Assembly (NCBI GenBank): GCA_964592525.1
Contig: CAZQFB010000004.1
Span: 1,195-65,194 of the forward strand
Length of the DNA stretch: 64,000 nucleotides
Direction of reading: 5' to 3'
Origin: an uncultured Candidatus Saccharibacteria bacterium
GTDB taxonomy: Bacteria; Patescibacteriota; WWE3; CAZQFB01
Shown in pieces: positions 28,646 to 34,330 of this stretch. Made by a program: the position numbers and the translations under genes. The first letter of the stretch is position 1. The number at the start of each line of letters is the position of its first letter. Under the pieces are notes generated by a model that did not search any database, was not told the DNA's origin, and worked only from the letters and a program-made list of their open reading frames with translations.

Positions 28646-31600
28646 TTGATGCCTAACCTGCCAGAACCATTAACAATTCCTCCTTCAGAAATACCCAGTG
28701 GTGGAAGGTCTTTTAAGCCCTTTCCGCATATTAAACCCCAAGCGCTAATTGTGCTCTTTATGTTTCTGATTACCCCTTTGGTTTTGTTTATGCTGTACCG
28801 TCGGCAGATATTTTTTAACCGAGCTGCTTCCCTGGAGGAATACACTTATGAATTTACCACCCCAGCTCGGGTTAATGCCGAGGTAGCCAACGCCCAGATA
28901 TACCCTGATTTGGCGATTGGTGAGCAGCGCCATTTTGTGACCTGGCGGGATCATTCGGTAAGTGGCTCGGATGAGGCAGCAGATATAATGGTGGCGACAA
29001 GTGATGGTTTGGTGGCTGGTGATAGCTGGGGTGGTTATACCCAACTGACCCAAGCGTCAATTACAGCTAGTGATGATTATTATCCTGTGCCTTCAATTGC
29101 TGCTGCTAATGATGATCAGGCGATTGTGGTCTGGGATGGTTCCTCCGAGCTTTATTTCTCTCGTACCTCAAATGGGGGTGATGAGTGGACTAGTCCAGCT
29201 ATCATCCAGGAAAAACCTCCTGCCATTACGGCGATCTCCGTTGAAGCTAAGGTTAGCGGTCAGTGCTTTTCTAGCAATTGCCCGCGCATAGCCCTGTTTG
29301 TTAATGGCGAGCATATTATTACCACTGACTCCAAAAACTACGGTGAGTTTGTAATTATTGACTCCAGTGTTGCTCAAAAATACACTTTTAATTTGCCTTC
29401 TAGTGTAGAAATTACGGAAGCCGATGAAGTATCCATTCGCGTTTACAACGTGGAAGGACTGCGTACGGCTTACTTTAGAGCAGTTAGTATCAATGATCAG
29501 CCAGAGGCAAAACCGGGTATTTTAGATCGGGGTTTGCTTGAAGATGGGAGTTCTTTTGATGGCGTTGATTATGCAGAAATTACCGGTAGTAATTGGGTAA
29601 CAGTGTCTGCTGATGAGGGAGCAGAAGGCATGTTGCGCTTTAATCATACTAGTGCAGGTTTGCTAGGTAATCAGGCGGAGTTTACTTTTTTTAACAGTGG
29701 CAGTGAAGGCTTTGCCCATAGTCCTAAAATTATCTACGCTAATGGGACTTATTATGTAGTGGCGGTTATATTAAATGACAGCGAAATGAAATTGGTTATG
29801 TACCACTCTCTGGATCAGGGGGATAGCTGGTCATTTGAAGAAGTGGAGGCTGGGTTAACTGGGACTGACTGGCAAAGTGTGACACCGGCTATCGCTTATG
29901 GTGGTGGTAAGTTGCATATCGTTTATGCGGCTTCTGATGAGATTAAATACGCTTTACGGGAGGTTGCCTCTGGTTCAAGCTGGTCTACTCCCCAAACGAT
30001 AGCTCCTTCTTTTGTTTCTAATCCTCGGTTAATCGCTAATGATGATAAGGTTTTTGTGGCATTTGCGGGTGGGGAGGCTTCGGTGATAAGTATAGCTACC
30101 AAAAACCACAGCGATTCTAACTTTAATTTTTATCAGGTGGGCACTGGTGAAAATACCCATCACCCTGATCTAGCATTATCTGGAGATTTACTACAAGTTT
30201 ATTGGGTTTCAGGTAATGATTTAAGTTATTCAGGTTCTCGTGATGAGGGGGTTACTTGGCTGGCACCAATTATGGTTACTACGGGTGGGGGAAACCAGTA
30301 TCCAGCAGTTGCTGCTGGGGCAAATACCCCGGGGTCGGTTGTCTATCAAGGAAGCGCTAGTGGTGATTTTGATATCTATGCTAGTTCAGTGGTCATTGAG
30401 GAGGTTGTGAATGCTTGTGGTGATGGGGTTTGCGAAGCACCTGAAGATAGCACTTCTTGTCCGGAAGACTGTCCCCCTTCTACTACTTCGCCTGATTTAG
30501 TGGTGTCAGGCATCTCTTATTATGCTTCGGAAGGTGACGCGTTAGCTGGCACCAACCCATTGAGTGAGGACGCTCTTAGTAATTATCTTGGTCAAGATAT
30601 TTACTTTAAAGCTGCGCTCCAAAATGTTGGTAGCGTTATTCTGCAAAAATTTTATGTTGATTGGAGAGAAGGTAGCCCCGGGGATGTTTATGAAGAAATG
30701 TCATCATTCAAGATGGAAGAGCATTCCTATCCAGAGAACGAACGTCTCTCAAATTTATTACCTGGAGAGATTTCCTCTCATGGGAGTACTGTTGGTCGAT
30801 GGACAGTGCCGGGGGCTGGCTCTTATGCTGTAGGATTTAGAGCTGATGTGGAGCACGAACCTGATCTTAACCCGCAAGCTATCGGTTCACTGGAAGAGGA
30901 TGATGAAGATAATAATGAATTTGTTCTTACCTTTCAGATTAGTGGTTCTAGTTGTGGTGATGGGGTGTGTACTCCTCCCGAAGATGGTTCTAATTGTCCG
31001 GAAGACTGTGGTATTACGCCGGTACCGCGCAACGGTAATATTGTGGTTGTGGCTAAGGGTATAGCTAGTAGTAGTGGGGTGATGCCCAAGATCAAGGTAG
31101 CTGCGGATGGGTCTTTTTTAAAGGTTACTGATGGTGGTGATGAGACTGAAGTTGAGGTTACTAGCGAGTATCAGTCATATTATTTTGCGATTACCACTTC
31201 CAGAGAGAAGATTGATGTTTTGTTTGCTAATTCTGATATTAATCTTGCCATAGCAGACGTGGCCGATAAAGCTATTTTACTAATTGATCGGGTTTCCATG
31301 TATACGCCTTTTCTTCAAGAAACCAGGATTGAGGTGGAAAACGGTATGGGTAGTGCTTCGGAAGCAATTATTCTAGATACGGGTGGTAGCTTTGCCCAGG
31401 AATTTTCTTCGCTTACCACTAGGCATTTTATTCAAGCGACTGATTTAGTGTGTTCGGCAGATAATTTGCTGGGGGGAGTAACTCCTTGCGAGAGTAACGC
31501 CCTTACGATATCTGAAACCGGGGCTTTGAGGATTAATTATGACTCTAGTGTTCAGTGTTTGCAGGACAACAACCCCTCCCTACCTTTATTAGCCCCACGA

Positions 31601-34330: not shown

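Follow-up and report, generated by a model that had tools for sequence, protein, structure and literature searches.

A giant exported protein with a predicted lysozyme-like C-terminal domain and recurrent four-cysteine knots

The giant gene and its C-terminal domain

We analysed a stretch of 64,000 nucleotides of contig CAZQFB010000004.1, here called the window, that carries the gene of a giant surface protein. The gene is an uninterrupted open reading frame (ORF) at 28646..34330 (+) and encodes 1894 amino acids (aa) when counted from the TTG at 28646. The ATG at 28649, which is the second codon, is the likelier start. The public copy of the same protein (P0001) has 1893 aa from the ATG and is its one occurrence in public data. 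In a word-indexed search of 5.8 billion clusters, the full-length protein was a singleton that matched only itself. An assembly chimera was rejected because the base composition is uniform along the gene and an identical protein is present in NCBI. The protein is strongly acidic (267 Asp and Glu residues versus 83 Lys and Arg residues) and contains 64 Cys. In a Kyte-Doolittle scan, the sole hydrophobic segment was found at aa ~33-52 (28742..28801, +), followed by YRRQIFFNRAAS. This segment is predicted to be an N-terminal signal anchor or signal peptide, cleaved or uncleaved. A C-terminal sorting motif of the LPXTG type followed by a hydrophobic tail was not found in the protein, whose chain ends within the C-terminal domain described below (...FLTEVCLE). 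With no sorting signal and no hydrophobic stretch other than aa 33-52, the protein was rejected as a sortase substrate. An earlier reading of this DNA from its letters alone (the sequence-only reading) had described a giant modular surface protein of 1894 aa, and the uninterrupted frame with its single N-terminal hydrophobic segment agrees with that description. The whole protein had no match in NCBIfam. Searches of the full protein and of selected sub-regions against the PDB gave no match or marginal ones only, to the tail-fibre propeller of phage P68 and to WD40 (E >= 0.03).

The C-terminal ~205 aa form a separate domain rich in Cys and Trp (10 Cys and 6 Trp; aa 1690-1894, 33713..34327, +). 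It carries the motifs LLHE(1736)GW, GPFQF, NLRDAAFAAAAY and WHG. A word-indexed homolog search with this domain found nothing. An exhaustive phmmer search of 1.84 billion representatives recovered 21 proteins at E <= 1e-3, including the giant protein itself. One repetitive and apparently spurious protein (P0017) was left out of the family. The best relatives are 69%, 43%, 41% and 41% identical to the domain. Nearly all relatives carry the domain at or near the C-terminus of a protein of 260-1155 aa, and their N-terminal parts have nothing in common with the long N-terminal portion of the giant protein (the stalk). The domain has thus been combined with different N-terminal regions. No relatives were found by tblastn against phages or in a scan of viral contigs. 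The family is rare, unannotated and overlooked by curated models.

In the 19-member alignment, P36, E47 (Glu1736 of the giant protein), C75, W115, D149, A153, W172 and G186 are invariant, and G-P-x-Q, P142, N146 and C188 are nearly so. Within the GPFQF motif, G1773, P1774 and Q1776 are at least 90% conserved. Glu1736, encoded by GAG at 33851..33853 (+) and present in 19/19 family members, is the predicted catalytic acid. An AlphaFold2 model of the domain based on this alignment reached a mean predicted local distance difference test score (pLDDT) of 93.4 and a predicted TM score of 0.91. The modelled fold is mainly alpha-helical with eight helices, and Glu47 is located at the end of helix 37-47. 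The sequence-only reading had regarded this region as a distinct, possibly enzymatic domain; it is well folded in the model, and the links to lysozyme-like proteins described below make an enzymatic role probable.

To place the domain in a known superfamily, we compared its profile with sequences, profiles and structures. The only PDB sequence matches of the family profile were Slt35/MltB, SltB, g-type lysozyme and T4 lysozyme, at E 0.05-0.75. In these matches the invariant Glu coincides with the catalytic Glu, including that of the RES motif of goose egg-white lysozyme (GEWL). As a comparison set we used six lytic transglycosylases of E. coli taken from the MG1655 record. In hmmsearch alignments, Glu1736 was aligned to E162 of MltB, E64 of EmtA and E217 of MltC, and GPFQF to the GLMQ-type motif (GLMQ of Slt70, GYGQF of MltB and GIWQ of MltD). 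The family therefore places a Glu at a helix end, as in the E-S/T/G motif of these enzymes, and keeps the second, G-L-M-Q-type motif downstream of it in the same order. In hhalign, the comparison with the E. coli SLT alignment gave a probability of 80.5% and a score of 40.9, and that with MltB a probability of 86.6% and a score of 44.0. Among 40 column-shuffled controls the highest score was 17.3, the reversed control reached 11.9, and shuffled probabilities did not exceed 0.7%. Among the relatives, weak Pfam matches were observed to SLT_2 (5/19) and SLT (4/19), with a best E of 7.6e-4. Relatives also matched the PHROG families 'internal virion protein with endolysin domain' (best E 2.4e-7), 'lytic tail protein', 'endolysin' and 'transglycosylase'. 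Foldseek detected no significant structural neighbour of the domain (E >= 0.05, TM 0.3-0.5). The top of both Foldseek lists is occupied mostly by SLT and GEWL domains, phage lysins, a GH23 chitinase, destabilase and autolysins, and in BFVD nearly all top matches are SLT, LT_GEWL or other peptidoglycan hydrolases, with a probability of up to 0.96.

On the basis of this profile and motif evidence, together with the weak fold matches, we conclude that the domain most likely belongs to the lysozyme-like superfamily, as a Cys-rich and very divergent representative of its lytic-transglycosylase type. The comparison with lysozyme and transglycosylase models that the sequence-only reading had proposed was thus positive at the profile level, and the relationship points to a known catalytic superfamily instead of the structural, non-catalytic fold that this reading had set against its own claim. 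Membership in a known superfamily lowers the novelty of the domain but provides a function for the giant protein. In common with family-1/3 lytic transglycosylases and goose-type lysozymes (GH23/GH103; SLT PF01464, SLT_2 PF13406; MltB/Slt35, EmtA, MltC, Slt70), the domain has a helix that ends in the putative catalytic Glu. The order of the following elements is also the same: Glu, G-x-(M/F)-Q, an N-(I/L)-x-x-(G/A)...(Y/F)(L/A) helix and aromatic-x-G. Unlike these enzymes, the domain contains 10 conserved to semi-conserved Cys, which probably form five disulfides, several invariant Trp and an insert of ~30 residues that separates the Glu helix from the GPFQ motif. It also superposes poorly on them (TM 0.3-0.5) and has Gly in place of Ser/Thr after the Glu. 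In the searched literature, no work was found that joins Candidate Phyla Radiation (CPR) bacteria, lytic transglycosylases and cysteine-rich domains.

The domain of the window does not reach the threshold of any curated SLT-type model in Pfam or NCBIfam. This failure and the Gly after the Glu would both be expected if the lysozyme-like domain were catalytically dead and served as the glycan-binding tip of an adhesive or structural surface fibre, and many giant surface proteins are indeed adhesins. Against such a fibre, the Glu is invariant in 19/19 sequences, and the GPxQ, NxxD and aromatic-G motifs are kept at pairwise identities of 25-70%, which suggests selection on an active site. We therefore consider a dead domain improbable. 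Enzymatic activity, substrate and target of the domain are what we infer from these sequence comparisons.

Stalk modules and four-cysteine knots

The N-terminal ~1690 aa of the giant protein consist of several modules. A tiled BLAST comparison revealed a strong internal duplication between aa 587-766 and aa 1106-1286 (49% identity, E ~1e-35). The duplicated unit of ~180 aa comprises a short Cys-rich knot and a beta-sandwich domain of ~150 aa. A word-indexed homolog search with this unit found nothing. The first copy of the sandwich lies at aa ~617-766 (30494..30943, +), where it was recognised by the duplication and by Foldseek, and the second at aa ~1133-1286 (32042..32503, +). In the second copy, Pfam CARDB (PF07705) scored 12.7 bits, below its cut-off of 22.7, and covered the C-terminal half of the model only. 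An AlphaFold2 model built from both copies was of moderate quality (mean pLDDT 66.9), with a beta-sandwich core at pLDDT 80-90. Its best PDB matches in Foldseek were two entries of the CARDB domain of Pyrococcus PF1109, 3idu and 2kl6 (E 1.2e-4 for the top match, 3idu, to 3.6e-4; probability 1.0; TM(target) 0.57-0.69). As modelled, the duplicated sandwich has the seven-strand beta-sandwich fold of the CARDB type.

A CBM60 module is located at aa 1405-1555 (32858..33310, +). Within it, Pfam CBM60 (PF16841) matched aa 1422-1507 with 56.8 bits, well above the cut-off of 28.2 (E 3.3e-15). A further module, named 'QCFSS' here, lies at aa 196-345 (29231..29680, +) and is inserted in the propeller-like region described below. 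The sequence-only reading had counted a 'QCFSS...VSIRVYN' module of ~100 aa twice in the giant protein. This repeat is at best an ancient one, as aa 196-345 and aa 1405-1555 show only a weak, colinear likeness over ~140 aa (z = 3.85, equalled in 5/1000 shuffles); the clear repeat is the one between aa 587-766 and aa 1106-1286, which that reading had not described. The two modules have in common LFVNG/LWVNG, YTFNLP/YTFDVP and a terminal EGMLRFN, an ending that is visible in the DNA as well. BLAST did not detect the relationship. The 'QCFSS' module is probably an old, weak duplicate of the CBM60 module. A possible third CBM60-like module occupies aa 791-965 (31016..31540, +), with a Pfam CBM60 match of E 0.097 at about aa 799-865; pairwise comparison as a third copy was not significant. 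Both the 'QCFSS' module and this region stay below the Pfam CBM60 threshold.

According to its Pfam description, the CBM60 family binds xylan, galactan and cellulose. These modules could therefore hold plant or algal polysaccharide for a forager, whose C-terminal domain would attack environmental beta-1,4 glycans such as chitin or chitosan. A GH23 chitinase and GH19 chitinase-like proteins are indeed among the weak fold matches of that domain. The profile and PHROG links, on the other hand, lead to enzymes that act on peptidoglycan (MltB, EmtA, MltC, endolysins and virion lysins), and the relatives stand in a type IV secretion system (T4SS) context, not among genes for polysaccharide utilisation. 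Foraging is thus an improbable role for the protein.

On either side of the 'QCFSS' module lies a region resembling a beta-propeller of the BNR/Asp-box type, with a first part at aa 61-195 (28826..29230, +), which is a weak assignment, and a second part at aa 346-586 (29681..30403, +). Two canonical Asp-boxes were found, SLDQGDSW at aa 388 and SRDEGVTW at aa 531, as well as one variant. BNR_2 (PF13088) covers aa 354-560 with 19.2 bits at a cut-off of 31.4. A BNR-like propeller is therefore weakly indicated by the sequence. The remaining parts of the stalk include a Cys-rich region without assigned fold at aa 1287-1404 (32504..32857, +; 12 Cys) and a region at aa 1556-1689 (33311..33712, +) that has no family or PDB match. 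Besides CBM60, the Pfam matches precomputed for the public copy include PF26689.1. The local Pfam copy lacks this accession, and nothing was found on PF26689 in the searched literature. One region of the giant protein may thus already have a newer Pfam family. The novelty suggested for the large modules holds only in part, since most of them belong to known families (CBM60 above the threshold and a CARDB-like fold), with the BNR-like propeller assigned weakly.

A regular expression, CG[DN]GVC...C..DC, matched five knots in the giant protein. Knot 1 is found at aa 591-609 (30416-30472, +; CGDGVCEAPEDSTSCPEDC), knot 2 at aa 770-788 (30953-31009, +; CGDGVCTPPEDGSNCPEDC), knot 3 at aa 1020 (31703-31759, +), knot 4 at aa 1045 (31778-31834, +) and knot 5 at aa 1110 (31973-32029, +). 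Knots 3 and 4, a Cys-rich stretch of 46 aa and knot 5 form a Cys-rich hub at aa 1020-1128 (31703..32029, +). The wider block of aa 1017-1130 (114 aa) contains 22 Cys. No match to the pattern was observed in 50 shuffled windows, which supports the five knots that the sequence-only reading had reported. Also in line with that reading, which had called them linkers between larger domains, the knots are positioned at domain boundaries. At the DNA level they form a five-copy repeat family of 72 nt with an identity of 61-71%. Four Cys, G4, E12 and D20 are the invariant knot positions. Two disulfides are the simplest reading of the four Cys, with binding of a metal or Ca2+ as an alternative. In the structure model of the knot and CARDB unit, the knots have low confidence (pLDDT ~40). 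A profile of 20 knot sequences found no counterpart among PDB chains (AN1 zinc finger, E 3.3), and the knot was matched neither by the local Pfam copy nor by NCBIfam. No account of the knot sequence was found in the searched literature.

We scanned metagenomes for the knot with one narrow pattern, ACG[DN]GVCE, and a second pattern taken from the duplicated domain. In total, 279 stretches matched, and ten loci were confirmed: nine with the knot as defined and one (L014) with a longer variant. The metagenomic proteins that carry the knot are unrelated to each other and include an M23 peptidase with CARDB (L015), a protein with FN3 (L011), one with RCC1 repeats (L018) and a small surface protein of archaeal type (L020). 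A metagenomic protein of 1139 aa (L013, 6929-10345) has eight knots and no Pfam match, and it indicates that the knot is a reusable module beyond this genome. The knot recurs in environmental surface proteins and is uncatalogued, and it could therefore be defined as a family. Among the multidomain surface proteins of uncultured bacteria with CARDB and carbohydrate-binding modules, those such as the M23 peptidase-CARDB-knot protein of L015 are like the giant protein in that a wall hydrolase, a CARDB sandwich and the CG[DN]GxCE...C..DC knot are mixed on an extracellular modular protein. They differ from it in the catalytic domain, domain order and length, and there is no overall homology.

Secretion-linked relatives and proposed function

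To examine the context in which relatives of the C-terminal domain occur, genomes were scanned with a five-sequence alignment of the family, which returned two loci only. An informative context was found for two relatives. One of them (P0004; L010, 699-4271) is encoded after three T4SS_pilin genes. In a metagenome-assembled genome of Candidatus Roizmanbacteria (L001, 2337-7141), the lysozyme-like domain is followed by Peptidase_C39_2 in the same protein. A T4SS-pilin-like gene and a large, unassigned and apparently multi-pass membrane protein are encoded nearby. As a separate observation, a small membrane-anchored protein is kept just downstream in two loci (1780-2181 of L009, a stretch spanning 32-2181, versus 4268-4723 of L010; E 5e-13), and the same protein is weakly present in a third locus.

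VirB1-like hydrolases of monoderms have been described as proteins that combine SLT and a cysteine peptidase (PMC12102498), and in most Patescibacteria genomes with VirB2 homologues no VirB1 homologue is detectable (PMC12102498; see also PMC12857230). The family of the C-terminal domain may be the VirB1-type hydrolase that has mostly gone undetected in T4SS loci of Patescibacteria. As with the VirB1-like wall hydrolases of monoderm T4SS (TraG of pIP501, PrgK of pCF10, TrsG and CD419), genes of the relatives adjoin T4SS pilin genes. One relative also joins a glycan-cleaving domain to a papain-like cysteine peptidase, which corresponds to the SLT plus CHAP logic of these hydrolases (PMC12102498). 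The giant protein is unlike them in that it lacks a peptidase domain and T4SS neighbours, and its putative muralytic domain ends an adhesin-like stalk of 1690 aa. A position within or beside a type IV secretion cluster is thus found for relatives only, not for the gene of the window.

This context bears on the question of whose wall is cut. If the protein were a housekeeping autolysin or 'space-maker', it would cut into the peptidoglycan of its own cell during growth or division, or to let surface machines be inserted, with the stalk as no more than a wall-binding scaffold. Relatives beside T4SS pilin genes, one of them fused to a C39-like peptidase, represent the classical VirB1-like setting of self-wall opening (PMC12102498), and the giant gene itself stands among housekeeping genes (SUF, pentose-phosphate, FtsH). 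It seems unlikely that this applies here, as the ~1690 aa of the stalk, with its CBM60, CARDB and propeller modules, far exceed the length required to span from the membrane to the cell's own wall. The T4SS-linked relatives, with 400-1150 aa, contain nothing of the stalk, and the window has no T4SS genes.

Somewhat more probably than not, in our view, the giant protein is a long glycan-binding stalk, anchored at its N-terminus or secreted, that carries a muralytic head, in short a wall-cutting adhesin. The protein would be exported and then either anchored or released via its N-terminal hydrophobic segment. This segment is followed by the BNR-like propeller region with its inserted CBM60-like module, two CARDB-like sandwiches, one clear CBM60 module with one or two degenerate copies and several Cys-rich stretches, with the five knots at domain junctions. 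The CBM60-type modules, and perhaps the propeller too, would bind glycans and thereby bring the muralytic head to the cell wall. CARDB sandwiches and knots might form a long, semi-rigid stalk, in which the knots would act as short rigid spacers, probably held by disulfides or metal. The terminal domain would then cut peptidoglycan in its glycan strand, using Glu1736 as the acid in the single-glutamate mechanism known from lytic transglycosylases and goose-type lysozymes. The preferred target is the envelope of another cell, either a host or a neighbour, which is what one would expect of an epibiotic CPR bacterium; remodelling of the cell's own wall is the main alternative. Our preference is based on the length of the stalk, the lack of partners from a T4SS and a likely CPR origin. 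An origin from a CPR bacterium, which would probably be ultra-small, is suggested by the relative in the Roizmanbacteria genome and by the T4SS-pilin array next to another relative, an arrangement described for Patescibacteria.

Several points weigh against this proposal. The C-terminal domain of the window has no direct match in Pfam, NCBIfam or PHROG, its link to the superfamily runs via relatives and profiles, and Glu1736 is followed by Gly where Ser/Thr is usual for a catalytic Glu. The CBM60 family is known to bind xylan, galactan and cellulose and not peptidoglycan, and the BNR_2 match is sub-threshold. Among the families assigned to ORFs of the window, there are no T4SS genes and no other wall-related partners. 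Cleavage and retention of the N-terminal segment are both possible, so that the protein is predicted to be either anchored or secreted. The epibiotic lifestyle of the source organism is an expectation presumed from its likely CPR origin.

A more far-reaching version would see the protein as an organelle with which an epibiotic CPR bacterium breaches the host wall. In it, a muralytic domain from a still unrecognised VirB1-type T4SS lysin family of the lineage itself would have been grafted on a glycan-binding stalk of ~1700 aa, and the knots (CG[DN]GxCE..E....C..DC) would be a new, widespread and structurally uncharacterised mini-domain that stiffens such stalks and is itself stabilised by disulfides or by metal or Ca2+. 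We regard this version as doubtful. CPR bacteria and Patescibacteria spend their life on host cells, and the way in which they get through the host envelope or hold on to it is largely obscure. With carbohydrate-binding modules and a predicted wall-cutting domain on one surface protein, the giant protein provides a concrete, testable candidate for this step. Its parts are mostly variants of known folds in an unusual combination, and they leave known principles unchanged. It is new in degree on three points, as the catalytic domain belongs to a rare and unannotated subfamily, this domain is fused to a giant stalk, and the knot is uncatalogued.

We also compared the protein with giants of the polymorphic toxin type (RHS/YD and CdiA), which are likewise long and exported and carry their enzymatic domain at the very end of the chain. 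Just upstream of the giant gene, the opposite strand codes for an RHS/YD protein. Unlike RHS and CdiA toxins, the giant protein has no RHS, filamentous-haemagglutinin or PT-repeat core and no pre-toxin motif. An RHS-type polymorphic toxin was rejected, as these repeats are missing and no immunity-like gene lies downstream, where the next gene is convergent.

Neighbouring genes and other features of the window

The giant gene is directly preceded by a NifU/SufU-like gene and followed by a convergent Wzy_C/TPR gene, which corresponds to the NifU-like and O-antigen-ligase/TPR neighbours named in the sequence-only reading. The NifU/SufU-like gene closes a SUF cluster that is interrupted by the RHS/YD gene. 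The cluster (17087-28521) consists of an ABC ATPase gene at 17087, two SufBD-type genes (17892 and 19333), a class-V aminotransferase/SufS-type gene at 20390 and the NifU/SufU-like gene at 28159. Inside it, a minus-strand pair (21605-27948) comprises a 441-aa ORF without family and the gene of a 1673-aa YD/RHS-repeat protein (22927..27948) with a hydrophobic segment at its N-terminus. The pair gives the appearance of surface or toxin genes inserted in a housekeeping operon.

Two further large ORFs, 1470..3647 (-) and 3649..6117 (-), adjoin a sortase gene at 6237..6968 (+) and had been regarded as paralogs B and A of the giant gene, built from a shared module set. The ORF at 1470..3647 contains the sixth knot of the window, and this one 19-aa knot in common bears out that part of the claim. 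Apart from the knot/Cys-rich stretch (BLAST E 3e-5), the giant protein has nothing in common with it. Between the giant protein and the ORF at 3649..6117 nothing was detectable; the copy of the 'QCFSS' module expected there gave z = 1.2 and no match of a hidden Markov model. A shared module set is thus not supported. The two proteins resemble each other, not the giant protein, and they are therefore not its paralogs. They share a Cys-rich C-terminal region of ~230 aa with 33% identity and a C-terminal hydrophobic tail after PQTG/PPAG-like motifs, and the ORF at 3649..6117 contains a VWA domain. Both are likely sortase substrates and, judged by sequence, appear unrelated to the giant protein except for one knot.

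All four large exported proteins of the window, 1470..3647 (-), 3649..6117 (-), 22927..27948 (-) and 28646..34330 (+), begin with a hydrophobic segment, after which comes a basic stretch that is similar in each (FLAQKRAKLRSGA, FIVQRRQQLRSGA, MLYRRQIFFNRAAS, ILSRTTFFKPQAG). This common pattern may serve as a signal for export or processing that is specific to the lineage.

Other features were observed elsewhere in the window. Transketolase is split in two genes at 38411-40235 (+), one for the N-terminal half and one for the pyrimidine-binding/C-terminal half. A split transketolase is known from archaea and some bacteria. At 40758-40830 (+) lies a tRNA-Ile gene whose anticodon, TAT (UAU), is seldom found in bacteria. 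In the region 43681-44923, a tyrosine recombinase/integrase gene (44051..44923, -) lies ~300 nt from tRNA-Ala(CGC); it is XerC/D or else marks where an integrated element has its edge. Two tRNA genes with the anticodon CAT are found near each other, at 45495 and 45756.

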